NCBI GenBank assembly: GCA_049516875.1 | Contig: JBEKSS010000014.1 | Coordinates: 19,743-83,742 of the forward strand | Origin: Candidatus Bathyarchaeia archaeon | GTDB lineage: Archaea > Thermoproteota > Bathyarchaeia > Bathyarchaeales > Bathycorpusculaceae | Direction: 5' to 3' | Length of the DNA: 64,000 bases | In this document: one piece after another, positions 1 through 15,391 of the stretch | Layout: each line of letters begins with the position of its first letter | Numbering within the stretch: the stretch's first letter is position 1 | Position numbers and translations under genes: made by a program | The notes under the pieces: generated by a model | The model's database searches: none | The model's input: the letters and a program-made list of their open reading frames with translations, nothing else | Told to the model about the DNA's origin: nothing

Positions 1-96
1 AAAGCTTTAGAAGCAAAGTTCAGTGTGTATTCGCTGTAGCCGTTGCTTTTCACGTCTATTAACACGTTGATGATGTTTTCAGGATGCTTGTTCAAA
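1..96 (-). CDS. 5' part of a probable further tyrosine integrase (intC of a third element), running off the left window edge
   Basis: Immediately past the att copy at 120-143 the minus strand reads LNKHPENIINVLIDVKSNGYSEYTLNFASKA. This resembles the start of the 14156-15094 integrase (LAEFMIHCEKQAFADATIETKYKIL). Only about 30 codons are visible. Confidence 0.45.
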
Positions 97-213
97 AAAG
101 ACTGACGTGCTGCTAAGAGGGCTGGCGTGTTGGTCGTAACCCGTCATTAGCCTTAGTAATTTTTCATTTTGTTGTTTTTGTTCTTCTGGTTTTGTGTTGT
201 TTGGGTTTTCCAT
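79..213 (-). pseudogene. Integrase N-terminal fragment (intN) of element 2, cut by att
   Basis: ORF MENPNNTKPEEQKQQNEKLLRLMTGYDQHAS(PLSSTSVFFEQAS*) with GAGGT RBS. It crosses att in the same GYDQHAS frame as 6351-6626 and the integrase. Confidence 0.65.
120..143 (-). repeat. att direct repeat 3 (duplicate of rnpB 3' end)
   Basis: GGCTGGCGTGTTGGTCGTAACCCG, identical to 6386-6409 and 15073-15096. Confidence 0.95.
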
Positions 214-1026
214 TTTCTGTTACCTCTGTCATGTATATATCAACCCAACTTCCTAATTTATGGTTGACGAGGAGACAATATGCCTTTCTAGCATGATGCA
301 AGCATGAAGCGAAGCGCACTTGGTGGCTGACGCCAGATAACGAGCTTGCTATGGCTAGGACAGATAGCTTTCAAACCCTTCCCCCTTAAATTGCGAATGG
401 GGGAAAGGCTTATGTCTCCGAGGAGCGCGCGCTGTATTGTTGTCTTCTAGGTATAAGCTTCTAGATGGTTACCATAGCTCCTTTAGTGGCTTTAACGTTT
501 CTTGCCCTTGGCAGGAAGTTGCTGTCTCAACTGTTTCTTTTTCGCTTCTTTATCCCGTTCTATCTTTTTCTGTTGTGCGATTTGAGTATTCTTTTGTTTA
601 CGTTTCATTACACTCGGCATAAATCTCAGCTACAAATTAACGATAAATAAACAAGCTAAAAAATATTTCTTTCGCATTAATGGAGGAAGCCAATAATATC
701 CAAAACTGACGCGTCTTTCTTTCATTTCATTAAAGAAGCCAACTTTATGGTAAAAAGAGAAAAAGAGTTTTGCAAAGCTCTTTCTTGGGGCTTAAGAAGC
801 CTGTGTTTTGCTTTGCTTTTCCTAAGTCTAGAAGAGGCTCGGCTTACAGATTTTGGGTCTTGGGGCGCGCGCTAGGAGTTAAAGCGCGTTGCAGAGGGGT
901 TTTGGGGTTGAGAATTCTGGAACGCATGCTGGCTTTAGCGCGCGCTGTCGGTGCTGGTGTTCTAGGTTTTCAATCGAAGGTTCTTCCACAAATCATAAGA
1001 CTGAAAACAGTAGATATAACAAATGA

Positions 1027-1995
1027 TTGAAAATGAGCCGAAAACTTGTTTTGATGTTGACCTTGACACTTCTCATTGGCACGTTGGACTTGTCATTTGA
1101 AGTTCAAAGGGTTGAAGCATCTGGAACCATTTACATACGGGCTGACGGAAGTATAGACCCGCCAACAGCACCTATTTCAACAATTGACAATATCACATAC
1201 AGCTCAACGGGTAACATTAACGACAGCATCATTATCGAGCGGGATAACATTGTGGTTGATGGAGCACGCTACACCGTGACTGGAAACGGATATAGCGGGA
1301 ACGGAATAACGCTTACTGACAGGAACAACGTAACAGTGAGAAACATGACGATAAAAAACTTCTACATCGGCACCTATCTCTACTCTTCTTCTAACAATGT
1401 TTTGTCTGGCAACAGCGTCACAAACAACTCTTATGGCATTTTGCTCGTGTCTTCTTCTAACAATGTTTTGTCCGGCAACAACGTCACGGCAAACAACGGA
1501 AACGGCATCTATCTCCTCACACCTTCTTATCTCCTCACTTCTTCCGATAACAACACCTTGTCCGACAACAACATCGCAAACAACAACGCTGCCATAGAGC
1601 TCGACTCTTCTGATGACAACGTCTTGTCCGGCAACAACATCACAAACAGCGGGATAAGTGTCGAGCTCGTTTCTTCTTCAGGCAACAGTATCTACCACAA
1701 CAACTTCATCAACAACACCCAGCAGGCATTAACCAGCGAGGGCTATACCAACAGCTGGAATGAGAGCTATCCTTCTGGGGGCAACTGCTGGAGCGACTGC
1801 AACGGAACAGATGCAAACCATGATGGCATCGGTGATACCCCGTACATCATTGACGCAAACAACACAGACAACTATCCACTTATGGTTCCATATACAATTC
1901 CAGAGTTTCCAGCATTCCTCATTCTGCCGTTATTCTTCATAGCAACACTACTGGCGGTCATAGTGCAAAGAAGAAAACACCCTCGCGCGCGCTAG
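1027..1995 (+). CDS. Secreted NosD/CASH parallel beta-helix protein with PEF-CTERM-like sorting signal
   Basis: Signal peptide, repeated SSNNVLSGNNVT beta-helix units, GNCWSD...DGIGDTPY motif, C-terminal IPEFP + TM + RRK. Confidence 0.85.
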   Translation: MKMSRKLVLMLTLTLLIGTLDLSFEVQRVEASGTIYIRADGSIDPPTAPISTIDNITYSSTGNINDSIIIERDNIVVDGARYTVTGNGYSGNGITLTDRNNVTVRNMTIKNFYIGTYLYSSSNNVLSGNSVTNNSYGILLVSSSNNVLSGNNVTANNGNGIYLLTPSYLLTSSDNNTLSDNNIANNNAAIELDSSDDNVLSGNNITNSGISVELVSSSGNSIYHNNFINNTQQALTSEGYTNSWNESYPSGGNCWSDCNGTDANHDGIGDTPYIIDANNTDNYPLMVPYTIPEFPAFLILPLFFIATLLAVIVQRRKHPRAR

Positions 1996-2011
1996 CGTGC
2001 GCATGCCAAAA

Positions 2012-2668
2012 TCAATTTTTCTTGATTGACTTGATAACCTTGTTTGTCAGTTCTGTACACTGTTTCAACGCAGCTTTGTTCTTTAGGACTTCGCCCTTTT
2101 CATCACCTGCTCTGACGTTGACCGCTATGAAGGGAGGACGATCGTGTGAGACTAATGTCAACCCAAGAGATTCGATATACTCTACAACAGTACGCAGTGT
2201 TTCCTTCTTGAATCTGCCCGTGCCTGACAAGGCAAAAACGCAGAAAGGTTGTTGCTTCGGTAGAAGCTTATAGTTTGGTTCTGCGAAGGTGTGTTTGTAG
2301 CCTTTGTGTTTTCGCATATGAACAATTGTGTCCAGTCTTTCCAAGAAAGCTAAGAATTTTGAGGAAGCCAACAGATACTTGGGGAATATGAACATTAACG
2401 CGTCGGCTTTCTTCATCTCTGCGAGAATCTGGTTCAGATCATCTGTAAGGACACATTCTTCGTGCACACATTTTTCGCAGAGAACGCAAAACTCAATCTT
2501 CTTGCTTGCCAATTGGATTATTCGGGACTTGGAACTTGTAGACTCGAGGATAGACTTGGCTAATGCGTAACAGTTGCCATCGTTTCTGTGGGAGCCCACT
2601 ATCGCCAGAAGTTTTGTTTTCATAGACATAATTAAGCTGGTTTTCATTAAAGTCTTTATTGGTACCAA
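2012..2668 (-). CDS. Flavodoxin-family / iron-sulfur flavoprotein (NADPH-dependent FMN reductase fold); start probably at about 2623-2629
   Basis: GSHRNDGN FMN-binding loop, CxxCxxCxxxxC motif, DDLN..ADA. Confidence 0.8.
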   Translation of the reverse strand: MVPIKTLMKTSLIMSMKTKLLAIVGSHRNDGNCYALAKSILESTSSKSRIIQLASKKIEFCVLCEKCVHEECVLTDDLNQILAEMKKADALMFIFPKYLLASSKFLAFLERLDTIVHMRKHKGYKHTFAEPNYKLLPKQQPFCVFALSGTGRFKKETLRTVVEYIESLGLTLVSHDRPPFIAVNVRAGDEKGEVLKNKAALKQCTELTNKVIKSIKKN

Positions 2669-2709
2669 CTGACGCGCGCGCTAAGTAACAATACGCAGCT
2701 TTTGTTGGT

Positions 2710-2822
2710 CTTTTGTAACAAAATACTGTAACAAAACGCAAAAATCGGGGAAAAACTCCAGTTTCCAAAAAGTCAATAGAGAGTCCATGCATTTTGGCTT
2801 TTTTTCAGACTTTTGTGACAGG
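2710..2822 (+). repeat. Dispersed ~115-bp repeat, copy 1 (three TGTRACA units)
   Basis: CTTTTGTAACAAAATACTGTAACAAA identical to 61668-61693; similarity continues about 90 bp. Confidence 0.75.
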
Positions 2823-3049
2823 AAACAAAACTCCTAGAAATAAGCTTCTTTCTAGGAAATAGAATGAACTCTTCAACGTTTCCGACTTAACACCAATTAT
2901 AACCTTTCTGTGCAAAAGGCATTTTGACAAGTTCACCGCAAAACAGAGGAACTAGACAAGGATAGAAGGAAATGACGAACAAGGCGATCACGGCTTGGTT
3001 GTCTGAGGAGAAGAAACTGCAAATTGGATAGTGCGCACAAAGTGTAGGT

Positions 3050-3840
3050 TCAACTGCCTTTTTTCAGGAAATCTAGCATCTGCTTCATTTCTCTGTTCTT
3101 ATCGTTCTCTGTGGAATAGTCTCTGAAAAACTCGAATACAAGGTACTTCAGACTCTTGCAACGTTTCAATTGGTCTGTTATGAAGCCCAATTCTTGGACT
3201 GTTGGCTTATAGTGACCAAACCATTTTTTTCGCGGATCCTAGCGACAGAAAGATGGGCTGTGCATATTTCATCATTCAAACGAGAAACCCAATCAACAAG
3301 AGCTTCCATCTTCCCCTGATTTGACTCCAGAACGTGTCCTATGTCCATGCAGGAGAATAGGCTACTGTTATCCATAACCTTTGCATAGGTTCCCAAATTC
3401 GAGAATATGCCATTATTACAGTTTTCAACCGTTATCTTGCCAACTCTCTTGATTTCCTTCCCCATTTCTTTCAATGTTTTGGCTATGCGGGACGAAGTGA
3501 CGTTTTCTTCTTCAAAGCTCCCCAAATCCGTCTGTATGTGAATGTTGAAGTATTCTGACTTGATTCGCGATGCAAAGCTTGCTACCGATAAGATGGTATC
3601 ATGACTACCTTTTCGGACTCCTTCCCAAGGAGAGTACAAATAGATCGTCTCCCAAGGAGATTGAACACCTGCCTCTAGAGAGTATTCTTCAAGAGCCTCT
3701 AGTATTTTTCCTGTGTCTTCATCTAACCATGTGGGTGTGTCTATTATGATATCAACGAAATCAAAACTGAGGTTGCCAGCGATTGTTATGCCATTGACGA
3801 TTGAACCATGTCTAAAAATCACAGGAAACCCGAATTTCAT
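3050..3840 (-). pseudogene. Sugar-phosphate isomerase/epimerase (AP endonuclease 2 TIM barrel), frameshifted at an A7 run near 3224-3230
   Basis: NIH, TVEN, CMDIGH and AHLS motifs. After the A7 run another frame continues KWFGHYKP...YLVFEFF...KKGS* to 3050. Confidence 0.65.
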
Positions 3841-4095
3841 CTTGGGTCACGGATACAATAGCACGCGTGAATACTTTATAAAATAAACGCGCGCTCTTTT
3901 ACTTTCCAACCATGATTCAAAAGTGTGTCGTTAAATGGGAAAAGATAACATTAAACTTATTAACGATATCCTAAATGCATTGCATTTTAGCGTCTGATAC
4001 TCAATGAATTTAGTGAACGCACGTTTCTGTCAGCTGGTAGTCTAGTAGGTACGTTTTGATTTTGCCCTCAACTTGTGAATCGAAGGACTCGAAGG

Positions 4096-4833
4096 CTAGA
4101 GAAAAAAGCGTGCATTCAGTTCTGTTATTGGTAAAAATCTCTGGAATGCTTCTCTGATGTCACCGCTGTTTTCCAATTCGTATAGATATCCTAGTGCCCA
4201 GTAATCTTCTCCGTCGAAAGATTGATTCAACATTCCCCTAAGGTATTTTTCAATATGCGTTCCAAGGCACATCGAATTGCAGACGAAATGTAATCCCCAA
4301 TTTCTTTCGTTTTCACCGACCAGATAAGCGTCGATGTATTGCTTGATTGTACTCGCGAGTTCCCCATCATTTCTCCAGCTAAGCTGTTTCGTCCTGTCGT
4401 CACTAAGTAATTCTAGAGCAATTTCAGTTCCTTTAGAAGCGAAGTTAAGTATTTCATCAACAGAAGAGCTGTAATCTGAAAGTACCTTAGGTCTATCAAG
4501 CTCAAATTCATAGTCTCTTATCTCAAGCTTGTCCTGTTGGGGGTTGACGAGGAATCTTGAAGACAAGTCAGCCATTGCATCTCGGATTTCCGGTGGGATT
4601 TGTGTTTTCTGTTCCTCTGAAAGGTAAATGCTGCGACTTGTTGGTGGATTCATCGAAGGTATGCTGAGACAGGCGTAGAGCGAATCATCAGGAGTGCGGG
4701 GAGATTCGAAGTGGTAAGTCAGGACACAGCCGTTGATCAGCGAATTTCGCCACTTGAGGACTAATGATCTGAATAATTTGTGCAGCTTTATCTGCATGTC
4801 AACTTTGCATTTAAAATCAAAATGCACCCACAA
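4096..4833 (-). CDS. Hypothetical protein
   Basis: 245-aa ORF of normal composition, no motif recognised. Confidence 0.6.
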   Translation of the reverse strand: MWVHFDFKCKVDMQIKLHKLFRSLVLKWRNSLINGCVLTYHFESPRTPDDSLYACLSIPSMNPPTSRSIYLSEEQKTQIPPEIRDAMADLSSRFLVNPQQDKLEIRDYEFELDRPKVLSDYSSSVDEILNFASKGTEIALELLSDDRTKQLSWRNDGELASTIKQYIDAYLVGENERNWGLHFVCNSMCLGTHIEKYLRGMLNQSFDGEDYWALGYLYELENSGDIREAFQRFLPITELNARFFL

Positions 4834-5171
4834 GGCTCTTCCACATCGGTAGCTAGCTAGTTTCAGCTATAACTTTTCCGCAAAATCCTGTAAGGTTTCC
4901 TTGTGTGTCTCCTGTCGCCCCCGTGGCCCCGGGTCCGTGGCCCCCTTTTCTTTTTCCATTTTCCTTAGGAAAAATTAGAGGTGCCTCTTTCCCTTGCCCA
5001 CCCCTTTTGTGCGTGTGTGGGTGATATGGAGAGAGTAGGTAGGTGTGTGCTTGAGTGTGTGTTAGTAAGAGTCGTAGAGAGTAGTAGAGAGCGCGTGGCG
5101 TGGTGCGGCTTGAGGGGTAAAGTCTTATCCCAAACCCAATTCATAGTTGACTGGCAGGGTCTGAAGGAGAC

Positions 5172-5477
5172 GTGGGCGTTTCGACAGGAGCACATTGGAA
5201 ACGAAGGCTAATCTCTCTCGTCTGGATTCTTTTGCCATTTTTTTCGTATGGTTTGTATCTGACTTGGTTTGATGGGGGCGTTCTCGAGGGGATGGAAGCT
5301 GAATCTGTTGTTGTGTATGTTCCCCTTGCCTTTCTGCTTGCTTTTCTTGATTTGATTGTCAATAAGTGGCTGCTACTGATGCTGTATTACGTGTTGTCCT
5401 TTGTAGCGCTATTCGTCGGTTACTACATTTATGACAAACGCAGGCAAAGGGTGCGCACGCTACCGCAAAAAACCTGA
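5172..5477 (+). CDS. Small membrane protein
   Basis: GGAG RBS, about 3 hydrophobic segments. Confidence 0.5.
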   Translation: MGVSTGAHWKRRLISLVWILLPFFSYGLYLTWFDGGVLEGMEAESVVVYVPLAFLLAFLDLIVNKWLLLMLYYVLSFVALFVGYYIYDKRRQRVRTLPQKT

Positions 5478-5623
5478 ACATTATTGTTACCGTCTGCTTT
5501 GTTCGTCGTTCATCCATTTTGTGACTATTTCTTCTGCATTGGTTTGGTTTGGGGTAAAGTTTTATCCCAAACCCAAACCCAAAAACAGAAAAGTGTGTGT
5601 TACGAAGTTATGAGTGACGCGGA

Positions 5624-6310
5624 ATGAAACGAAAAGTCGTTCTTGTGCTTTGCATATTGCTTGTGATGGTGATTCTAGTATCGTCAATGGTTTACTACTT
5701 CTGGTACGTGCCTTATGTGCACGTTCCACAAGCGCTCGGGCGGCAGTATATGTCGGTGTCTTTCTGGCCAGAATTTATTGGAGATATCAAAAGCAGCCCG
5801 ACTCCCCTCCACCTAAACTATGAAGGGAATGCGATGAACGTAACTTATGTCTCAATAGAAATCAATGTGACCAATAGCTACTTCCAACCTGTATACATAA
5901 ACTTCAGCGGTTTTGACGTAGTCTGGCTCATATATAAAAGGACGGTAACTGACCCTTCAGATGTCCTGAGTAACAGAGACTCTCTCGTTTGGGGGGCTTA
6001 CTATTATTTGGTTTATGAAGCAATATCGAACCCACGTAGAGGTATCCACGACTTCGCGGGAGACGATCTAGAATTCTATTCAGCAAATAGAAACAACACA
6101 AATTTCCAGACAGACATACCGAGCGGTAGCAGATCACAGTACTATGGGTACGCGTTGTTCGATGATCACATGGGCGGCGAGTGGTATGGCCAATATTATT
6201 CAAATCCTGAGTCACTCGTATCTCCAGGAACGTATTTCATGTACTGCATAATCTACGACTTTTCATGCACTCTACAAAACATAACCATAACTTCAGCAGC
6301 CCTACACTAG
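5624..6310 (+). CDS. Membrane-anchored/exported hypothetical protein
   Basis: N-terminal basic + hydrophobic anchor, Ig-like C-terminus (PGTYFMY), several N-x-S/T sites. Confidence 0.7.
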   Translation: MKRKVVLVLCILLVMVILVSSMVYYFWYVPYVHVPQALGRQYMSVSFWPEFIGDIKSSPTPLHLNYEGNAMNVTYVSIEINVTNSYFQPVYINFSGFDVVWLIYKRTVTDPSDVLSNRDSLVWGAYYYLVYEAISNPRRGIHDFAGDDLEFYSANRNNTNFQTDIPSGSRSQYYGYALFDDHMGGEWYGQYYSNPESLVSPGTYFMYCIIYDFSCTLQNITITSAALH

Positions 6311-6350
6311 CAAAAACGATCCTGTATTGAGACTCAGCGCACGCGCTATC

Positions 6351-6626
6351 TTAGGGTTCGACTCTTGTGGTATTCGGGAAATTAAGGCTGGCGTGTTGGT
6401 CGTAACCCGTCTTTAGTACAAGTAATTCTGGTTTTGGTGTTGTCGATTGATCTTTAGCTTGTGGTTGGTCTTTGGTTTCGGGTTTGGTTTCTTCATTCAT
6501 ACTTTTTGCCCTTTCTAGGAGTTTGGGGATTTCTATTTCTGTCCTTAGTCTCCCGTGTTCTATTTCGTCACGTGTTCTTTTTTGGGTTTCGTTTGTTTGA
6601 TTTGTCATGTATATCCTCCAATTCAC
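6351..6626 (-). pseudogene. Integrase N-terminal fragment (intN) of element 1; probable start 6608
   Basis: GGAGGA RBS before MTNQ. Reads ...ELLVLKTGYDQHASL across att, in the same frame as the integrase C-part. Confidence 0.75.
6386..6409 (-). repeat. att direct repeat 2 (distal att of element 1)
   Basis: 24-bp identity (26 bp with the AA at 6384-6385) to the rnpB 3' end. Confidence 0.95.
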
Positions 6627-6833
6627 CGCGTGCGTCGGTTTTTCTTTTTAACGTTTGGTCTCGCATGTACATCAACCCACATTCCTAATCGTTTCATTGA
6701 CGAGGCGACAATATGCCTTTCCCGACTGAGCAACTTTTTAGGACTGCGGGGAGCGCGCGCTGTGCGGGCGACTTGTTGCTCTGTTGGATTTCCGCGCTAC
6801 TTTACTGAGCGTTAAAACGGCGGGTGTTTATAG

Positions 6834-6907
6834 CGTTCTGTTGTTTACTGTTGTTTGTTGTTTGTTCTGTTGTTGTTTGTTCTGTTGTTGTTTGTTCTGT
6901 TGTTGTT
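6834..6907 (+). repeat. T/G-rich tandem repeat, about 3 copies of TTTGTTCTGTTGTTG
   Basis: Directly visible 15-bp periodicity in the non-coding part of element 1. Confidence 0.7.
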
Positions 6908-7155
6908 AGCGTGTGTTAGTTAATTCGTTCCTGTTAGCGAGAGTATAGCGAGTTGTTTGTGGCGTTATTGTTGCTGTTCCTTTGGCGTTCGATTGGCGTT
7001 TTGCCTATTTTTGTAGCGCGCGCGACCTTGTTGGATATTTTGTATCAGTAAAAAGTTGCGAAGGAGGCGCACCCTGAGCGGAGCGAGGGGGAAAGGCTTA
7101 TGTCGCCGAGGATTTCGAAGCGCGCGCTATAATACTTTTGCGCGCGATTTCTTGC

Positions 7156-7746
7156 TCATTTGAGCAGTTGGGATATTTTTGACAGTTTTTCCTGAGTCTG
7201 GTTTACTGAATCCACGATTTGTCGGTATTGTTTTGGATACTTCTTTGCGATTGTTATGAACTGTTTTACCACTTGGGGGGTGAATCCTGTGCGCATTTGG
7301 TTGGCTAGGATGGAATCGATGTCGGTTTGTTCTATTTTTCCCTTGGTTAATGCTGCGAGATATAATACCTCGAACGCGTTTTCTCCGAGAATCGGTGTGG
7401 TTTCTATGAGAAATTGAAGGTTAATGTCTTTTGGATAAAATTCACGTGCTCTGATAAGAATTGTTTGGGGATCTGCTCCTCTGCTTATTGCGAGGAATAT
7501 GCCTAGTTCGGTAAGCCAGAAAGACGGGTATTTTGTGCCGTGATATTCTTTAGTTGTTACGCTTTTGATCAGTCCTTTCTTCTTCAGTGTGTCGAAAGCA
7601 ATCCATGTGGATTTGTACTGCCCGTTGATTTGCTTCATAGTTTCATTAATGGTTTGAGCGTTGTTCCTTGCCAGACTCAGAATTACACGCTCCTGCAAGG
7701 GAGGAAAGTCACGTGTCTTCCTATTTTGCTTAGACATATGTCTCAC
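7156..7746 (-). CDS. Winged-helix DNA-binding protein, divergent from the Rep operon
   Basis: AFDTLKKKGLIKS...FWLTELG wHTH signature. Confidence 0.7.
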   Translation of the reverse strand: MRHMSKQNRKTRDFPPLQERVILSLARNNAQTINETMKQINGQYKSTWIAFDTLKKKGLIKSVTTKEYHGTKYPSFWLTELGIFLAISRGADPQTILIRAREFYPKDINLQFLIETTPILGENAFEVLYLAALTKGKIEQTDIDSILANQMRTGFTPQVVKQFITIAKKYPKQYRQIVDSVNQTQEKLSKISQLLK

Positions 7747-7875
7747 TGAGCTTAGATATGTTATATCTCACCATATATAAAAGTTCTTGCCTAAAACTAC
7801 TCGGTGAGAAAAGTTGTTTGAAAATTCGAAACGGAAAACTGCGCACGCTGTGCTCCCTTTGGGAGTTGATTTTCT

Positions 7876-8076
7876 ATGGCTGAGGGTAAGCTGCTGAACT
7901 GTATCTTCTGGGATGGTGTCGCTTGTAAGCATCGTAAGTCTGAGACGGTGAACATGATGGTTCGATGTTGGAGCTGTCGCCAGTTCAAGCGGTTTGTGAG
8001 ACAAATGGATGATGCTGATGCGAAAATCATGGAGGAAAATGAGAAGAGGCGTTCGGAAGGTGACGGTCTTGGTTGA
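7876..8076 (+). CDS. Small Cys-rich (Zn-finger-like) protein upstream of Rep
   Basis: CIFW..C, CWSC motifs; overlaps Rep start. Confidence 0.6.
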   Translation: MAEGKLLNCIFWDGVACKHRKSETVNMMVRCWSCRQFKRFVRQMDDADAKIMEENEKRRSEGDGLG

Positions 8077-9094
8077 CGCTGCTGTCCTCCGATTGGTTCG
8101 CTATTTTCTGGTTCTCCTTAGGTTGAACCCTCAGTTGATGGAGAATGCCTATTGGTATCTGCCCGTTCTGGACGATGGCCACGATAATTATGCGCAGGTG
8201 GGTCATAGCCCTAGCGTTGTAACTCCTTACTGTTGCTATTTCAGGGGTTGGAAGGTCTGTCGTGAAAAGGACTTGCATAAGGGTGTGGTTGTGAACGGTG
8301 TTGATTTTACGGATAAATCGGCGGTTTCCCCTTCACATCTCTGGTGTAAGAATTGGCATTGCCCTAAGTGTTTTCTTCACGGTGCTTGTGTCGTTGGTGC
8401 CCGTAGGATTGAAGACCGCCTGACTGCCTTCGTTGAGCGTGGACTTGGTAAGGTCGAGCACGTAGTTTTTTCGGTTCCAAAGGCTTCTCAGGACTTACCA
8501 TTGGAAGTCTTGTTCAAGATGCTTCCGTCAGTGGCAAAGGACAGGGGCGTGTCTGGTGTCTCAATTTTTCATGGGCGGTACATAAATACTGAGCTTGGCG
8601 GCCTTGCATGGAGAGCACATTTCCACGTGTTGGGTTTTGTTGACGGTGGCTTTTACCGTTGCAGGACTTGTGAACATGAGCGCAGTGCATGTGCTAGCTG
8701 TGACGGTTTCAAGGGTTGTGAAGTTCGAGGCTTTGCCAAAGACGGGTGGATTGTCAAGGTTGCTGATGAACGTTTGAGCATCTTTGGTACGGCGTGGTAT
8801 CAGTTAAATCACCATACGGTAAAGCTCGGTTTTCGCAGGGTGCACTCTGTCAGATGGTTTGGTAAGTGTGGCAACAGGATGCTAAAATCCAAGTACCATA
8901 GGTCTGGTGCTGGTTGCTCCTGTCCCGTTTGTCGGGCTGCTGGTCACGAGTCGGTAATGGATAATGGCGGATACTGGGGTAAACGTTTGCCTGATGATGT
9001 CTCCGATCCGCGTTACAAGTCTGTTTACGCTGTGCCTGATTTGGATGAAGAGGGCTTGCCAAACTTTGCCGATGGAGGTGATAGACTTGGTTAA
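8009..9094 (+). CDS. rep: HUH rolling-circle replication initiator with Zn-binding motifs (IS91/SNJ1-RepA-like architecture); start probably GTG about 8060
   Basis: CKNWHCPKC Zn motif, motif I HVVFSVP, HUH motif AHFHVLGF, motif III TAWYQLNH, C-terminal CPVC. Confidence 0.8.
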   Translation: MMLMRKSWRKMRRGVRKVTVLVDAAVLRLVRYFLVLLRLNPQLMENAYWYLPVLDDGHDNYAQVGHSPSVVTPYCCYFRGWKVCREKDLHKGVVVNGVDFTDKSAVSPSHLWCKNWHCPKCFLHGACVVGARRIEDRLTAFVERGLGKVEHVVFSVPKASQDLPLEVLFKMLPSVAKDRGVSGVSIFHGRYINTELGGLAWRAHFHVLGFVDGGFYRCRTCEHERSACASCDGFKGCEVRGFAKDGWIVKVADERLSIFGTAWYQLNHHTVKLGFRRVHSVRWFGKCGNRMLKSKYHRSGAGCSCPVCRAAGHESVMDNGGYWGKRLPDDVSDPRYKSVYAVPDLDEEGLPNFADGGDRLG

Positions 9095-9245
9095 GGTCCA
9101 AATATGTCCTTTCGATGGCTTACCATGCGAGTTTGTGGATTCTTGCGATGATGCTATGGTCTTGCTCTTAGAGCGTGAAGGTCTCAAAGGCTTCGATACT
9201 GAGAATGGTGAACATTGTTCACGCGCTGTTATTCGGCTAAAATGA
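9087..9245 (+). CDS. Small Cys-rich protein coupled to the end of Rep
   Basis: GGAGGTGA RBS, TTG start, CPFDGLPCEFVDSC motif. Confidence 0.55.
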   Translation: MVKVQICPFDGLPCEFVDSCDDAMVLLLEREGLKGFDTENGEHCSRAVIRLK

Positions 9246-9287
9246 GTTTCGTACCAAGCGCGCGCTCTAATCTTCTCTTTTTTTCTC

Positions 9288-10082
9288 TTAGCGCGCCCAC
9301 AAGCGCCATTTTTTGGTTTCAGACAAAATAGTTTTGCCCAATTCAGTAAAGTAGTATTCTGGCTGACCGCCATACACTTTTTTCCTGAAGGGAATCGGCT
9401 TTGCACTTCTAATGACTCCGAGATTGATAAGGTCACGGGCGATTCTTCTCAAGTCGTTCTTCTCACAGCTTTCATGGTAGAGACCATACTCTCCTTTGCG
9501 GCTTGAATCGAATGCACATAAGTCAAAACCCCTATCAACATATCCTCGGACTACTTCCAAAAATGAGATCATATCAATGTCCAATGCGCCCAAAACATTT
9601 CTGACCATTAAGTCTCTCGTTAAGTCCACTTGTTTTTCGGCATTTATCACAAGCTTTCTTATTTTGTCTCTTGAATTTTTTGCATTCTGTGTGGAAAATT
9701 TGTTCCATCTGAGGTGCCTAATATCAAAAGAAATATTTTCTGACTTTTCATCCCTTACGATGATTACCTCCTGTGGCAGACGGATGGCATGAGCTATGCC
9801 CAGTTCGTACATAACATTTGGATTTGGTCGGTCTTTTTCATCATTCGAAATATCGAATAACAACAACTTTGCTCTGCCGACTCCTTCCAAAACATCAATA
9901 GGAATCGAGTCGCTAACAAGTCGCTCTTTTGTACGATATGGTTTCAGACCGCATGAAAGAATAGCAGGTTTAAAGATATCTTTCCATCGTTGTTCGAATT
10001 GAGAGGAGAAAGGCATTGCCACAAATACTTCCATTGTCCTATCGAATGACCTGAACAAGTCCATGTAAGTTTTTGGGTACAT
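9288..10082 (-). CDS. Nucleoside 2-deoxyribosyltransferase/TIR-like domain protein with possible C-terminal wHTH
   Basis: VFVAMPFS, D-I-S, NPNVMYELGIAHA, FDIRHLR motifs; YYFTELGK at the C-terminus. Confidence 0.75.
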   Translation of the reverse strand: MYPKTYMDLFRSFDRTMEVFVAMPFSSQFEQRWKDIFKPAILSCGLKPYRTKERLVSDSIPIDVLEGVGRAKLLLFDISNDEKDRPNPNVMYELGIAHAIRLPQEVIIVRDEKSENISFDIRHLRWNKFSTQNAKNSRDKIRKLVINAEKQVDLTRDLMVRNVLGALDIDMISFLEVVRGYVDRGFDLCAFDSSRKGEYGLYHESCEKNDLRRIARDLINLGVIRSAKPIPFRKKVYGGQPEYYFTELGKTILSETKKWRLWAR

Positions 10083-10165
10083 TCCTATTGCATCATTCCA
10101 ATTTCTTGTACCTTACGTGGAACTTTCCAAACAAATTGGTTTCACCAGACATTTGATTGAGTGCC

Positions 10166-10759
10166 TTATTGTTCTTGTTGGATTCTCAGCCAGTCTTTTA
10201 TCAGAAGCTTGAACCTTACTATCTCATCATTGTCCAGTTCGCAGCTATGGGCGATAATGTTTCTAATGTTATTGAATTGACAGAGTGTGTCTTGAACTGC
10301 CTTTCTGCTTCTGAGAATATCTGCAAAGTCATTCCAATTTGAGTTGAATATGTCGGTTAACTCACCGAAGTTTGTATAGGATAAGTTATCATCAGACCGA
10401 ATCGACATTGCAGTTTCTCTTTCCTTTGCTTGCAGTTTCTTGACGTTATCTTTTATAACCACTGGAACTTTTTTTTCCCACCAATCGGTGCCGTGTTTTT
10501 CTCTCAGAACGTCAGTGATGAGCTTACGTACACTGTTCTCCATGCTGAAATATAATACATAGAAATCTGCCATTTTGCGAGCTTTCTGAAGGATTTCGAG
10601 TTCAAATAGGTCGGTGTCTACTAGTTCGTCTTTCTTCATTTGTTGTGAATGCCCGATTTCGATACCTGACCTTTCCAATTTCGCGAGTTCACCTTCAAGC
10701 ATCAAGTTCTTCATTCCAAAAACTAGGATTTGTTTGTTTCTTTCATTCTCGTCTTTCAT
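10166..10759 (-). CDS. Swt1-like HEPN domain protein (putative RNase)
   Basis: ENSVR, DWW, YTNFGEL and RNIIAH (Rx4H) motifs. Confidence 0.8.
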   Translation of the reverse strand: MKDENERNKQILVFGMKNLMLEGELAKLERSGIEIGHSQQMKKDELVDTDLFELEILQKARKMADFYVLYFSMENSVRKLITDVLREKHGTDWWEKKVPVVIKDNVKKLQAKERETAMSIRSDDNLSYTNFGELTDIFNSNWNDFADILRSRKAVQDTLCQFNNIRNIIAHSCELDNDEIVRFKLLIKDWLRIQQEQ

Positions 10760-11370
10760 GTTAGGAGGTGCTCCTTCAGAGCTTTGAAGATAGCATTGAA
10801 CACTTCGACGTCGTTTGTTGCAGGAAGGTTGAGATTTATCGTATAGGATATTCCGAGTTTCTCAATCGGTTGCTGCTTCGACTTTAATTGAGGCTCTAAC
10901 GGTTCCTGTGAAACAGCTGACGTTGCTTCTGTTATTTCTGTTGTCTCAAAATCAGCTAAGCTGCACAGTGCTAAAAAAGTACTCACCACTTTAGGCGTAA
11001 CCTTATCGTCTGAGGGAGTGCCTAGAACTGTATTCAGTTTGGCGATTATTTCATCTCTTTTGAGCTTTTGTGCGTACTCATTAGCGGCAAATATCTCTTT
11101 GTAAGCCTTCTTCACTTGTTGAGCCATTACAATTTTGGATTTCATTGGGTCGCGGTACTCTCTGTAGGCAGGGGTTGGGCCATTAGCTTCATCAACAAAT
11201 CCGAGTCTCTTAAGAAGTGCGATAAAAGGTCTAAAACTTGATGACTTCAAACCGAGTTTTGTGTATATGAAATCGACTGTGATTTTGGGTGGCACCTGTG
11301 CTTCCGTTATTCTTTTGAAAAACTCTTCTATTCTACCGTAAGCGTCCACATAAGGAGGATAAGTGACCAA
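10756..11370 (-). CDS. DUF5343-like DNA-binding protein, translationally coupled to the HEPN gene
   Basis: PPY...VPPK...LKRLGFVD..GPT..Y and C-terminal YTINLNLPAT..VFNAIF pattern; ATGA overlap at 10756-10759. Confidence 0.65.
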   Translation of the reverse strand: MVTYPPYVDAYGRIEEFFKRITEAQVPPKITVDFIYTKLGLKSSSFRPFIALLKRLGFVDEANGPTPAYREYRDPMKSKIVMAQQVKKAYKEIFAANEYAQKLKRDEIIAKLNTVLGTPSDDKVTPKVVSTFLALCSLADFETTEITEATSAVSQEPLEPQLKSKQQPIEKLGISYTINLNLPATNDVEVFNAIFKALKEHLLT

Positions 11371-11755
11371 TTTTATTCTCCGTTATCTCGTTAGTGAACT
11401 AACACATAAGAGGTTTTTGGTCAGTATGTCTTTTGTTCAATTTTGTGGTCTGAAACCACGTTCATGTAGTACGCGACGTCGGTTCTTTGAGCACATCGTC
11501 TGGAACGTGCGCGCGCGCATTGATGTTGGGTCGATTCGTAAGTTTCATAGAAAATGAGCAATTAGAAGCGTGGATGATGGCGAAAATGGAAAGATTGATA
11601 AAGGGGCAGCGAGTATTTGTGAGGAGTTTGTTTCGTCAAGGGTGACGCTTGCATGGACGCTGTCTTCGCGGCCTAGGCCGTTATTGCACTGTGTTGGTAG
11701 CCTAGTCTATAGGTCTGTTTGGCGCCACCAATCTTGAAACCAGGAGGTTTCCATT

Positions 11756-12025
11756 TTGGGTTTGATTTCAACTTTGAGAGATGAGTTTGCGTTTCTTCGC
11801 GGCAACATTCTGGTCATGATGACCAGTTGGTTAGTGATGAACTTTGCTGGCGCTGTTCCCAACACTTACTATTCTCTCTTTGTCCTGGGGTTAGGCGGCA
11901 CGCCCTTCATCATAGGCTTAATGCAGTTCTTTTCATACCTGGCTTTAGCTTCGACGCAGTTTCCAGGGGGTTATTTGGCAGACAAGCGCTGGAGAAAGAA
12001 CCTCGTGGTGAAGCGCGGGCTTTAA
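11756..12025 (+). pseudogene. Truncated MFS transporter (N-terminal fragment)
   Basis: GGAGG RBS; ends just after MFS motif A (GGYLADKRWRK). Confidence 0.7.
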
Positions 12026-12037
12026 AGGGGAACACTG

Positions 12038-13321
12038 ATGAGCAAGAATAAGTCAAGAGATGAGCTGGACCCTAAACGAAGATCTCATTGGTTTTCAAGT
12101 ATTTCTTTGAAGGCGGGGTTCTCAGGCTTGTCCTCCCAAGTGTATATCCTAGTGTTTCTGGGCTTTCTGTTCTCACTTGGAAATAACATTGCTTTCCCCT
12201 ACCTTGCCATGTTCTTGGCAGGAAAAACTCAAAACGGGGGTTTAGGGTTTGCCTCGTCACTCGTGGGTTTGATGCTTATGACAGGAGGATTCACTTCCAC
12301 CTTTGCACTCCTGTTCACTGGAAGCTTGTGTGACAGATTTGGCAGAAAAATAATGATGATGTCCTCACTGATTCCACAGATTCTGCTGACCATCGGCTTT
12401 GCATACGTTCACGCATATCTCGAATTCCTGCTGCTGTATGCAACACTTGGAATTGTAATGGCCTTTTTCAACCCAGCTTACGGTGCCATGATCGCGGATC
12501 TCGTCCAGCCAGAAAGAAGGGAACAGGTCTACGGCCTAAATTACATGGTAGGCAACGTTGGTTTTATGGCTGGATTGCCCATCGGGGGTTTAATTGCAAG
12601 CATGAGTGGCTTCTCTGTGCTATACTTCTACGCTGCCATTTTTGTATCCGCAGGGGCAGCTGGCCTTGGTCTACTGATCAAGGAATCTAAGCCTCTTGAG
12701 GTCGCTAAGGAAAAGTTTTTTTCCGATGTTACCCCGATCTTTAGAGACAGAGTTTTCATACTGTTTTGTTTCATGGGAGCCTTGACAATTGTCGTTTACT
12801 CACAACTGTACAGTTTGCTATCCGTCTACACGGAGTACCTTGGCTTTGAGCCCTACGTCTTTGGCTTTCTCTCCTCAATAGCTGGTGCGATGGTGGTGAC
12901 CCTCCAAATCCCAATCAGATTGGGAACTGTGCGAATAGGTCCGACAAAAGCATTCATAATCGCTGAGACACTCTTTGGTGCGGGATTAATCTGTTTAATG
13001 TTTGCTGCGAACTTTTCCCAATTCTTAGTAGCCATTGCAATTCTGACCATTGGAGAAATAATCTTCTTCCCTGCAAGCTCAGCTTTTGTTGCTAATCTTG
13101 CTCCAGCAGATATGCGGGGAAGATACTTGGCTCTGATGGGACTATTCTTTGGAATAGGAGGTGCAACAACAGAACTGACGATCTTCAGTATTTATGGATT
13201 GTTGGCTAACAAAAGCTTGATCTGGGGGATTTGGGGAACGCTTGGATTCGCGATTCTCCCTGGCTATTTGATGTTATTCAAGATGGCTAAGAGACACAGA
13301 TCAATTCCGACGCGGCCCTGA
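12038..13321 (+). CDS. MFS transporter
   Basis: GSLCDRFGRK motif A, about 12 TM helices, APADMRGRY. Confidence 0.9.
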   Translation: MSKNKSRDELDPKRRSHWFSSISLKAGFSGLSSQVYILVFLGFLFSLGNNIAFPYLAMFLAGKTQNGGLGFASSLVGLMLMTGGFTSTFALLFTGSLCDRFGRKIMMMSSLIPQILLTIGFAYVHAYLEFLLLYATLGIVMAFFNPAYGAMIADLVQPERREQVYGLNYMVGNVGFMAGLPIGGLIASMSGFSVLYFYAAIFVSAGAAGLGLLIKESKPLEVAKEKFFSDVTPIFRDRVFILFCFMGALTIVVYSQLYSLLSVYTEYLGFEPYVFGFLSSIAGAMVVTLQIPIRLGTVRIGPTKAFIIAETLFGAGLICLMFAANFSQFLVAIAILTIGEIIFFPASSAFVANLAPADMRGRYLALMGLFFGIGGATTELTIFSIYGLLANKSLIWGIWGTLGFAILPGYLMLFKMAKRHRSIPTRP

Positions 13322-13456
13322 GTCAAGGCTAGTCATCTATGAAAGGTGCTGGAACCCTTAACCTATTATGTGGAAACTGCAATGCGCGCGCGTTAGAAAG
13401 CGTTATATGAAAATGAACTCGATTAAAAGTCGAGGATAGCGCGGGCGACATTTCGG

Positions 13457-14038
13457 GTGGAGGGGCACAATTTGAGACTTAACTATTTAGGTTTTATCGG
13501 AGGCATATTGGCTTTCATCAGCTTGGTGTTACCGTGGTGGGCTATGAGCATTTCGGGTTCAGCCATGGAAATTAACGTCTCTGACGAGGTTACTCTGTAC
13601 CTATACCAAACGAGAGTGACCATAATAGGTTTATCAGTATCCGCTTCAACGAATCTTCCTTGGTATTGTTCGATTGCCTTAGCATTTGTGGTGTTAGGCG
13701 GCTTGCTGGGCTTGGCAGGTAGTGTCATTGCTAATGGGAGAAGGATTGTACTTTCACTTGGCGCCATACTTGCCTCGTTTTCGGTTATCATATTCGCTGT
13801 AGGATTGCAAAACCAGATTTCAAATGGGTCTTTGGTTTCGGGTTTGCCAACAGGAGTAGGTTTGTTCTCCAGTGGTGCATACGGCTATGGAATGGATTAC
13901 TCGTCGTACCTGTCTTTCGGTTTTTGGCTGGCCTTGGTTGCCGCGATTATAATGTTTGTCGCACTAACGAGAGAGCGCATGCTAGAACCCGCTGAGACAA
14001 TAATACCACCTCAACCTTCTCCCCCTGCGCCGACGTAG
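13457..14038 (+). CDS. Four-TM membrane protein with Pro-rich tail
   Basis: LPWW motif, GFWLAL, hydrophobic segments. Confidence 0.75.
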   Translation: MEGHNLRLNYLGFIGGILAFISLVLPWWAMSISGSAMEINVSDEVTLYLYQTRVTIIGLSVSASTNLPWYCSIALAFVVLGGLLGLAGSVIANGRRIVLSLGAILASFSVIIFAVGLQNQISNGSLVSGLPTGVGLFSSGAYGYGMDYSSYLSFGFWLALVAAIIMFVALTRERMLEPAETIIPPQPSPPAPT

Positions 14039-14155
14039 AATCGCGCGCGCTGTTGTTGTTTTGAGTTTTTGCGAGTTGGAGCGCGAAGCGAAGCTGAGCG
14101 CGACATTGTGGTCAGGAATGACATTGAATAGAAAAAAAGGTGGGCTGTTTGTGTC

Positions 14156-15094
14156 TTATTTGCGTTTTCGGAACATCATTATATTTTGGGGCGTTGTCAG
14201 AATGTATGTCCATCCGTTGTCTATTAGTTCGCCTGCTTCTTTTTCGTCTTTGGCTATTGCATGGTGGTAGTTTTGGCTTTCTTCGTCAAATTGAACTATG
14301 TGAGTGTAAACCATTGTTGAGTTTATGTTTCGGTGTCCTAGTCTTGCTTGAACTTCGATTAGGCTTTTGGTTTCGTTATAGAGACGTGTGGCGTGGTAGT
14401 GTCGTAGAGTGTGGAAATGTATTTGTTTGAGTCGTGGGTTGTTTAGTTTTTCAGCGAGGCGTTTCTTTTGATAATTGAACATGGTCCGAGTGAAGCCTAA
14501 GCGGGTGTTGCTGAATATGTAATTGTTTCGTTTCGGTAATGTGTTGAGTCGTGCAAATAGCTTAGCTGAGATTTTTACTTCTCTCGGTTTGCATCCTTTT
14601 TCAGGGTTGTTGCATTTGAGTGTGTTTTTTTCTTCGTCTATGTCTGTCCATTTGCATTGCCATAGTTCGCCTATTCTGAAGCCTGTTTCTTTGAGTGTTT
14701 GGAGTGCAATGGAGACTTTTTTGCTCGTTCCGCTTATGAGTGCGTCTATCTCTTTTTCTGTTGGAACGAATGGGAGTGTTTCATTTTTGGGATAGAGTGG
14801 TGGTGTCCATTGGATACCTTTCATTTTGGCGTATTCGTTGTAGGTGAAAACTGCTAGATTCTTGTGTCCGTTGGACCATTTGCCGTTTCTTTTTATGTAG
14901 AGTTTTACGGCTTCGGGGTCTGCTAGGTTTACGTTCTCTTTTATCATGTGTCGTAGAATCTTGTATTTCGTTTCGATGGTTGCGTCTGCGAAGGCTTGTT
15001 TTTCGCAATGTATCATAAACTCTGCGAGGTCTGTGTTTGTGATGACGTCAGAGCAGGCGGGTTCCTTTGAAAGGCTGGCGTGTTGGTCGTAACC
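14156..15094 (-). CDS. int: Tyrosine integrase, catalytic C-part (intC); open frame extends upstream through att into rnpB
   Basis: Catalytic residues in TGFRIGE, EKG, HTLRH, LGH, TMVY. Frame is open from GYDQHASLSKEPACSDVITNTDLAEF to the ATG at 15016. Confidence 0.92.
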   Translation of the reverse strand, partial: GYDQHASLSKEPACSDVITNTDLAEFMIHCEKQAFADATIETKYKILRHMIKENVNLADPEAVKLYIKRNGKWSNGHKNLAVFTYNEYAKMKGIQWTPPLYPKNETLPFVPTEKEIDALISGTSKKVSIALQTLKETGFRIGELWQCKWTDIDEEKNTLKCNNPEKGCKPREVKISAKLFARLNTLPKRNNYIFSNTRLGFTRTMFNYQKKRLAEKLNNPRLKQIHFHTLRHYHATRLYNETKSLIEVQARLGHRNINSTMVYTHIVQFDEESQNYHHAIAKDEKEAGELIDNGWTYILTTPQNIMMFRKRK

Positions 15095-15391
15095 CGCCTT
15101 TTGTTTTTTGTGGCATTCGGCTAATCGGGCTACCCGCGCCTTCCGGTAGATTCTTCATCGGCGTCTGTTTGCCCTTTCCACTTGCAGGACGGCCGTTTCA
15201 CCGTTTCGCACCCTGCATTCTCGACAACTTAGCATGTGTCATCGGCATATGCCGGGCGGACGTTTCGTTTCTGCTCCGTAGCCAAGGTTCTCACCTTACG
15301 CCCTTGCAGGCGTTGCAATTCTACGCGTGGGCGGAGTTTCCTCAAGCCTTCCAATATGAGGCTCGAAAGCCACACACCAACTCGCCAGCCC
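15072..15391 (-). ncRNA. rnpB: Archaeal RNase P RNA
   Basis: P1 helix GGCTGGCGAGTTGGT / ACCAACACGCCAGCC; GAGGAAACTCCGCCC pairing with AACAAAAGGCGGGTTA (P4); internal GCAGAAAC and TGAAACGGCCGTCC conserved regions; about 320 nt. Confidence 0.92.
15073..15096 (-). repeat. att direct repeat 1 (within rnpB 3' end)
   Basis: CGGGTTACGACCAACACGCCAGCC on the minus strand. Confidence 0.95.

Follow-up and report, generated by a model that had tools for sequence, protein, structure and literature searches.

Behind rnpB, the gene for the archaeal RNase P RNA, a Candidatus Bathyarchaeia archaeon from peat carries at least four tandem elements bounded by a short repeat (att). We found that the tyrosine-integrase gene of the element next to rnpB, E1, is probably split by integration, in an SSV-like layout at rnpB. 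The DNA analysed, called the window below, is the whole stretch of 64,000 nt at positions 19743-83742 of contig C14 (JBEKSS010000014.1) in a 2.43 Mb genome of 20 contigs; coordinates refer to the window unless a contig or locus is named.

Tandem elements at the 3' end of rnpB

The rnpB gene, the one RNA gene that Rfam recognises in the window, was identified by model RF00373 (196.6 bits versus a gathering score of 84). The match is full-length (model positions 1-288, not truncated), and a whole-genome nhmmer search gave one rnpB copy. No tRNA gene was found in the window. The 23-mer GGGTTACGACCAACACGCCAGCC occurs there in three exact minus-strand copies (0 expected, 100 shuffles), and a fourth copy lies on the same contig beyond the window. 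Read in the direction of rnpB, the array runs rnpB-att1, E1 (8.7 kb), att2, E2 (6.2 kb), att3, E3 (15 kb) and att4. The features on which the argument rests are as follows.

15078..15385, minus strand: rnpB (archaeal RNase P RNA), the host target
15073..15095, minus strand: att copy 1 (attL of E1), exact 23-mer, also placed by the Rfam alignment
6386..6408, minus strand: att copy 2 (attR of E1 and left end of E2), exact 23-mer
120..142, minus strand: att copy 3 (attR of E2 and attL of E3), exact 23-mer
Contig C14 4869-4891, beyond the window: att copy 4, end of E3
6409..15072: E1, 8.7 kb, between att1 and att2
14156..15094, minus strand: intC1, integrase body of 312 codons plus stop, counted from the Gly codon in att
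6351..6608, minus strand: intN1, ATG at 6608 with GGAGG at 6615-6619 (6 nt upstream), 67 codons, then att2
143..6385: E2, 6.2 kb, with NosD-like, FMN reductase and TIM-barrel fragment cargo (Pfam)
79..213, minus strand: intN2, ATG at 213, 24 codons, then att3 in frame 1
1..119, minus strand: start of intC3, in full at L001 18950-19837, a second integrase type

Att copy 1 takes in the final 18 nt of the match to the Rfam model and 5 nt beyond it, and the repeat spans the end of the CR-V/P4 strand and the P1 3' strand. Because the Rfam alignment puts it there, the repeat is the 3' end of the ribozyme. Identity between copies 1 and 2 extends to 26 nt. Together with the preceding GGC, att1 forms an 8-6-8 imperfect inverted repeat (GGCGGGTT / ACGACC / AACACGCC), a layout that, judged from the sequence, would be the usual form of a tyrosine-recombinase core site. 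On the element side, 9 nt past att, AACCCGCC (15056..15063, minus strand) repeats exactly, in inverted orientation, the GGCGGGTT that stands at the left edge of att. The region 15055-15104 also holds a perfect 9-bp inverted repeat, with one arm (AGGCGGGTT) in the 3' region of rnpB and the other (AACCCGCCT) on the element side. Should transcription read through, this repeat could fold back onto the 3' strand of P4 or act as a hairpin at the 3' end; it is missing from the host-side flanks past far-end att sites.

E2 has no integrase body beside att2, where a stop follows only 11 codons past the repeat. The integrase of E3, intC3, is 32% identical to intC1 (PF00589, 2.6e-17) and crosses att3 in frame 3. 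This frame is closed by a TGA directly ahead of att3, which is expected there because att3 joins two different elements. Past att4, on C14 outside the window, lies another E3-type integrase (L001 3849-4806, att frame 1) with a stop between att and gene and an internal frameshift. It was recovered as two tblastn pieces, 46-49% identical to the E3 integrase. We therefore place a fourth, decayed element there; no further att copy was found beyond it on the contig. A second rnpB ahead of att4 was considered and rejected, as Rfam gave nothing in L001.

We found the array in contigs of four metagenome runs, which sample peat or wetland, belong to four studies and include two possible sources of the genome; contigs of all four bridge att2 (X1 record 4, X2 record 13, X4 record 22, X6 record 26). 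The layout of rnpB, att, integrase and second att also recurs in many independent assemblies, with the integrase at the expected end of each element. These observations leave next to no probability for the view that the repeats arose by segmental duplication of the rnpB 3' end, or through faulty assembly, and are not attachment sites; only the general risk with metagenome-assembled genomes speaks for it. Two joints that touch att (143 to 15068 in X4 and 14173 to 15073 in X1) were set aside as uninterpretable, their 21-22 letters being shorter than the repeat itself. The contigs also differ from the window in places. In three of the four runs a 30-nt stretch replaces positions 288-402. At ~5550-5580, summed contig depth near 5565 is ~10 times the local level and all four runs carry a 1-base insertion variant; a short repeat shared with other DNA is therefore probably present there.

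The integrase reading frame across att

The first in-frame ATG of intC1, at 15016, gives a 286-aa ORF (14156-15016, minus strand) that matches Pfam PF00589 (Phage_integrase; 6.1e-24, 85.1 bits versus a cutoff of 27.1). The frame itself is open from 15154 to 14156 and crosses att1 as ...AGYDQHASL..., where the Gly codon is at 15094. At the far end of E1, intN1 (minus-strand ORF 6626/6608-6351) enters att2 in the intC1 frame (...TGYDQHASL..., Gly codon at 6407) and reaches a stop 11 codons past att. An original prediction made from the letters of the window had described both crossings, with the frame open upstream of 15016, and our coordinates and readings agree with it. We likewise recovered its second N-terminal ORF (213-79), which crosses att3 in the same frame and reads KLLRLMTGYDQHAS. 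The fused integrase of ~380 aa that it expected upon circularisation comes to 379 aa by codon count at the in-silico junction (67 codons of intN1 before Gly plus the 312 of intC1).

The att sequence contains no start codon in any frame and no stop in any of the three, which we denote by their readings (f1, GY.QHAS; f2, GL.PTRQ; f3, VT.NTPA). We examined 60 unique copies of the integrase gene classed as intact (frame open for at least 270 codons from att) and found that 25 cross att in f1, 12 in f2 and 23 in f3. Each copy has two other frames, and 57 of these 120 are likewise open over the span. Broken copies (L005, L009, L011, L022, L097, L101) are also open from att to helix 1 of the protein and break later. 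In the stretch that follows att and ends one column beyond Met 15016, 17 of the 60 copies have no ATG, GTG or TTG, and 26 have no ATG. A native start near 15016 throughout the homologues, which the original prediction had counted against its own proposal, does not fit the 17 copies that lack a canonical start before helix 1. Residues ahead of Met 15016 are conserved (G-x-L-x-x-F/Y) and align with internal residues of zinc-ribbon relatives described below. We modelled the E1 protein from the att Gly with AlphaFold2 (65-sequence alignment, pLDDT 85.8). In the model, helix 1 comprises residues 21-32, so that Met27 (ATG 15016) lies mid-helix, and residues 1-18, the att-coded octapeptide and linker, have pLDDT < 50 and are disordered. 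Because Met27 falls in the middle of helix 1 and the att-coded segment is disordered, the native N-terminus should lie upstream of att.

The far ends of the elements provide a second line of evidence. For 20 elements, duplicates removed, a single locus holds both att sites. An ATG-led ORF enters the far-end att in the frame of the integrase in 12 of them (7 f1, 3 f2, 2 f3): E1, E3, L003, L038, L039, L051, L062, L076, L091, L094, L113 and L011. The expected share is 1/3 (binomial test, P-value = 0.013), and this P-value overstates the evidence because the elements are related (the integrases of E1, L003, L038 and L039 are 93-95% identical). At the far end of E3 (att4), the ATG lies 6 codons ahead of att in frame 3, which is the frame of the E3 integrase. 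Of 27 unique att sites that have no rnpB upstream, 16 are preceded by the DNA motif AATTACTAAGG, which begins 19 or 20 nt ahead of att. At att3 (151..161, minus strand) it starts 19 nt before the repeat, and its E1 variant AATTACTTGTA stands at the same distance before att2. In the class with this motif at -19, the frame matches in 9 of 10 elements. The cleanest case is L094, in which intC has no start before helix 1 and a far-end frame-2 ATG ORF with GAGGAG enters att. GGAG or GAGG is found 6-11 nt ahead of many intN ATGs. Six junctions join different elements; there the integrase frame stays open for just 1-8 codons upstream, and none of the six is in frame.

A contiguous ATG-led ORF through att, with no rnpB upstream, was found in L083 (ATG 23 codons before att) and in L048. 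Neither locus has a terminal overlap that would mark it as a circle. In L083, the 492 nt upstream of att match no other locus, and a search with residues 1-50 of its fused ORF returned nothing among proteins, a weak negative with only 2 candidates. Three database proteins (P0032, P0034, P0006) have element-type leaders fused through att. Five aligned related right ends contain one clear indel of 15 nt, a multiple of three, and such cases are too few to count.

Several observations weigh against a split gene. The intact set was chosen as open from att, and its openness is thus partly by construction. E1 has the in-frame ATG 15016, and many relatives have an ATG or TTG just past att or at helix 1. 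In the two-ended set, the far-end ORF is in another frame in 7 of 20 elements (L056, L060, L068, L072 (= L009), L096, L097 and L005, three of them with broken integrases), L002 has no ATG ORF at its far end, and the frame matches in only 1 of 5 elements of the -20 motif class. The mismatches cluster in one right-end class, which looks mosaic and whose members share parts with L062. Two other junction contigs do not show a continuous ATG-led ORF: L106 is out of frame and L079 lacks an ATG. The intN pieces are unconserved in sequence and length (6 to 67 codons) and have no Pfam match; intN1 was not found in database proteins longer than 149 aa, which is a weak negative. The nearest relatives of the integrase are unsplit. 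Finally, neither a circle-junction nor an empty-site joint was found in the contigs of the four runs, and contigs cannot show absence.

Some of these points would be explained by an unsplit ORF whose start codon follows att: Met 15016 in E1, and an ATG or TTG just past att or at helix 1 in relatives. Integration would then at most detach a far-side promoter; the AATTACTAAGG box could be TATA-like, with a transcript starting in att, and the far-end ORFs would be untranslated leaders, or frames that happen to be open in A-rich DNA. Such a gene would fit the free variation of the frame across att (25/12/23), an outcome that the original prediction had itself set against a split. It would also fit a motif fixed in distance as DNA and read in different frames, the missing frame match in 8 of 20 elements, the presence of some ATG, GTG or TTG before or at the Met column in 43 of 60 unique copies, the lack of conservation of intN and the complete ORF that sister clades keep within the element. 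However, it leaves 17 of 60 copies without a canonical start ahead of the conserved helix 1, and most of the starts that do exist fall inside this helix. Nor does it account for frame agreement above 1/3 (12 of 20 overall and 9 of 10 with the motif at -19), or for Shine-Dalgarno-like sites ahead of the intN ATGs with none ahead of ATG 15016. We consider an unsplit ORF unlikely, though it carries real weight.

A third view treats the integrated copy as a working gene, read through from rnpB with an ATG inside the RNase P sequence and a chimeric N-terminus (frame 2 MPQKTKGGL..., frame 1 MKNLPEARV...). Such gene-called proteins exist in public data (~20 of the best 120), and frames 1 and 2 are open back to an rnpB ATG at part of the loci. 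The arrangement is inconsistent across loci, however. In E1, frame 1 is open just 20 codons upstream with no ATG; frame 3 is usually open for 9 codons upstream, also with no ATG; and frame 2 closes after 3 codons in L056, L076 and L094. We regard this view as very improbable. A split by integration at rnpB, as the original prediction proposed, remains the most likely reading, supported by the open frames, the start-less copies and the frame agreement in 12 of 20 elements; its likeness to SSV1 does not extend to the sequence family of the enzyme.

The amino acids encoded by att are passengers, because all frames serve and none has a stop in att. The original prediction had suggested looking for GYDQHAS in other integrases. 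We rejected a role for this peptide, since relatives cross att in all three frames and the segment is modelled as disordered. Its proposal that 24 bp double as ribozyme helix and integrase codons survives only in the sense of a frame that needs to stay open. We also rejected the pattern ahead of att as a protein motif: it is the DNA motif AATTACTAAGG, read as KLLRL or EITK depending on the element. On the other side of att, the integrase-side motif (AACCCGCC in E1) is present whatever the reading frame. Of the 70 unique sites with a long ORF behind them, 48 have an AACCCRCY-like motif within 24 nt past att, versus 0 of 13 others. E1, E2 and three related elements also share a conserved stretch of ~24 nt (GAAAGGCATATTGTC.CCTCGTC; 264-287 and 6694-6717, minus strand; right ends of L038, L039 and L106). 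It lies 60-110 nt ahead of the intN ATG and may be a promoter or regulator site of the split gene.

Integrase lineage, relatives and cargo

A homologue search over 5.8 billion proteins gave 416 matches, the closest of which are named Bathyarchaeota or Bathyarchaeia integrases in their source databases. We took 33 loci from reference genomes and 80 of 394 candidate metagenome loci and annotated them by nhmmer and a fuzzy att search. All but one of the genome loci (32 of 33) are labelled Bathyarchaeia or Bathyarchaeota. Among the genome loci, rnpB was detected in 13: it lies directly upstream on the same strand in 11 and is convergent in 1 (L019), no rnpB was found in 20, and L034 holds an integrase remnant only. 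Among the metagenome loci, rnpB is directly upstream on the same strand in 60, convergent in 5 and not found in 15. This is a common element family of Bathyarchaeia. The metagenome habitats of the relatives are peat, wetland and sediment, and among viral contigs we found one distant locus only (30% identity).

The second integrase type, 32% identical to that of E1, was seen at the same rnpB att in further loci (L039 7859, L076 13547, L082 76 and L113 464). Its members are also open through att, with all three frames represented. In ~20 of the best 120 integrase homologues, the gene-called N-terminus is translated RNase P RNA, in three frames (for example P0001, P0007, P0014, P0022, P0027 and P0054). 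These N-termini are an annotation artefact that hides rnpB on the contigs concerned.

Residues R114, H202, R205, H228 and Y237 of the E1 integrase are invariant in 25 aligned sequences, and we take them to be the catalytic R, HxxR, H and Y of tyrosine recombinases. The model has two domains, core-binding and catalytic, and its top Foldseek matches are XerA, IntI4, XerH, Tn1549 Int and lambda Int. The best solved sequence relatives are archaeal XerA (5hxy, 2.6e-11; Foldseek 7.4e-12) and 4a8e. The SSV1 integrase, for which solved structures exist in PDB, is neither among the 10 PDB sequence matches (E ≤ 0.01) nor among the Foldseek matches listed. The enzyme is Xer-like and lies outside the SSV1 sequence family.

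The sister group of the E1-type integrases is 53-59% identical to intC1. Its members are 375-440 aa long and have an N-terminal CxxC...CxxC (zinc-ribbon). Their genes converge on rnpB, with att 20-83 nt past the stop codon, which leaves the gene unsplit. In L100, L104, L107, L109, L111 and L112, the spacer between stop and att was seen to contain one to several extra att right half-sites (GGCTGGTGT-like; three in L112). These copies may be additional integrase-binding sites. More distant members (~45% identical) occur in 80 of 401 sampled genomes of the class. A tRNA gene is present at 14 of 29 distant-member loci, and in all 14 the integrase converges on the tRNA, so that 21-96 nt separate the C-terminal end of the integrase from the 3' end of the tRNA.

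We rooted a FastTree phylogeny of 96 sequences (305 columns) at its midpoint. In this tree, the 56 split E1-type sequences (support 0.85) and the 9 rnpB-convergent ones (0.86) form sister clades, with a joint support of 0.999. The tRNA-adjacent group falls outside this joint group, and the E3 type sits on a long separate branch. The tree suggests a move from tRNA to rnpB, followed by a change from unsplit to split with loss of the zinc ribbon; this order of events is only inferred because the rooting is not secure. In a wider form of the proposal, a plasmid-like family of Bathyarchaeia docks universally at rnpB: a zinc-ribbon, tRNA-targeting lineage switched to rnpB and then independently evolved the split layout. 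The zinc ribbon was lost, start and promoter came to lie across attP, the att segment became a frame-free disordered linker, and a second, 32%-identical type shares site and layout. We judge this scenario evenly balanced between right and wrong. If true, the split-integrase architecture would have arisen a second time, in a traceable way, outside hyperthermophiles and away from tRNA genes.

The cargo of the elements includes no capsid or other viral hallmark that we could find. E1 carries the following genes.

8009-9094, plus strand: candidate rolling-circle Rep, 361 aa, Cys-rich, HxH motif
10166-10759, minus strand: Swt1-like HEPN (Pfam)
10756-11370, minus strand: DUF5343 (Pfam)
12038-13321, plus strand: MFS transporter (Pfam)

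The 8009-9094 protein has an ESM Atlas feature score of 0.96 to Rep_1 (rolling-circle) clusters and no significant match in Pfam, PHROGs or NCBIfam; as a lead only, it may be the E1 replicase. On the minus strand at 9288-11370, the DUF5343 and Swt1-like HEPN genes are joined by a third (phrog_3634, 4e-13), and this cassette looks like a defence or toxin-antitoxin module of E1. E3 (15 kb) carries a family-1 glycoside hydrolase, a GNAT acetyltransferase, a Pab87-like peptidase and an ABC transporter.

Proposed cycle and known split integrases

In the cycle that we infer for these elements, the free form would be a circle in which attP lies within the 5' part of the tyrosine-integrase gene, with the promoter, Shine-Dalgarno site and ATG on one side of attP. 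Translation would begin in a short, variable, unstructured leader, pass through 8 att codons and ~12 linker codons and enter the core-binding domain at its helix 1. The attB site would be the final 23 nt of rnpB with their 8-6-8 imperfect inverted repeat, and recombination with it would restore rnpB exactly. Recombination would also split the integrase gene, leaving a start-less intC head-to-tail behind rnpB and a short intN at the far end, and the integrated copy would no longer make the full-length enzyme (a 'suicidal' integrase). The rebuilt attB would be open to the next element, giving rise to arrays and decaying copies.

Suicidal integrases with att inside the gene are described, in parts of a review of archaeal integrases, for the SSV1 type of Sulfolobales and for Thermococcales, and as occurring only in archaea (PMC8371274). 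The same parts place archaeal att sites mostly in tRNA genes and some in intergenic or protein-coding DNA, and 'RNase P' is absent from the text of that review. As far as these sources describe them, the SSV1-type, pTN3 and pT26-2 integrases have attP in the integrase ORF, intN and intC at the element ends and a translated att, all of which the Bathyarchaeia elements would probably share. The target of the SSV type is a tRNA gene and its hosts are hyperthermophiles, whereas the Bathyarchaeia elements use the RNase P RNA gene and come from peat, wetland and sediment metagenomes. Unlike in the SSV type, intN is tiny (6-67 codons), unconserved and predicted disordered, the att frame differs between close relatives, and the enzyme has no sequence or listed fold match to SSV1 integrase. 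According to another study, Thermococcales suicidal integrases are assembled from N- and C-terminal pseudogenes of different origins (PMC7253208), which resembles the frame mismatches and mosaics observed here.

The cryptic integrated element NitEve-E3 of Nitrososphaera evergladensis has an SSV1-like split integrase, as far as the main text of its description goes (PMC6563490). It is similarly a small element without viral genes in a non-hyperthermophilic archaeon, but its integrase is described as SSV1-like and 'RNase P' is absent from that main text. In bacteria, a putative PICI of Clostridium novyi sensu lato is reported in one passage to be integrated in, and to split, rnpB (PMC8473940). 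This provides a bacterial precedent for the target; that element, however, is phage-satellite-like, and the passage does not mention a split integrase. Integrases are mentioned in a paper on Bathyarchaeia viruses, in parts that mention no rnpB site (PMC10848311). We did not find an archaeal element at rnpB in the literature that we searched, although the supplementary tables of PMC6563490 and PMC13573593 might list one.

Two further comparisons concern the enzyme. Archaeal XerA is its best match in sequence and fold, with the same two-domain, core-binding and catalytic architecture, but XerA resolves chromosome dimers at dif, whereas the Bathyarchaeia enzyme sits at element ends beside att repeats. 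Of the zinc-ribbon integrases of Bathyarchaeia, one clade uses the same rnpB 3' end and the wider family tRNA 3' ends. These differ from the E1 type in the N-terminal CxxC...CxxC, in a gene that converges on rnpB or tRNA with att 20-96 nt past the stop, and in being unsplit. The class of mechanism is known; by the literature searched, the target class is new for archaea and the host group is new, the integrase lineage is a different one and the N-terminal piece is unusually small.

Split integrases are an unexplained oddity among archaeal mobile elements, described in the sources at hand for hyperthermophiles and tRNA genes and for one thaumarchaeal element. The elements reported here present the same layout in an unrelated, Xer-like lineage, in one of the most abundant classes of sediment archaea and at an essential ribozyme gene. 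Their unsplit sister clades let the transition be traced, and the elements themselves make a testable case of whether the N-terminal piece matters at all. The elements explain rnpB-adjacent islands and contig breaks in Bathyarchaeia genomes, and they expose a recurring artefact, database integrases with N-termini from translated RNase P RNA. The 23-bp, highly conserved attB in an essential gene could also serve genetic tools in a class that is without a genetic system.

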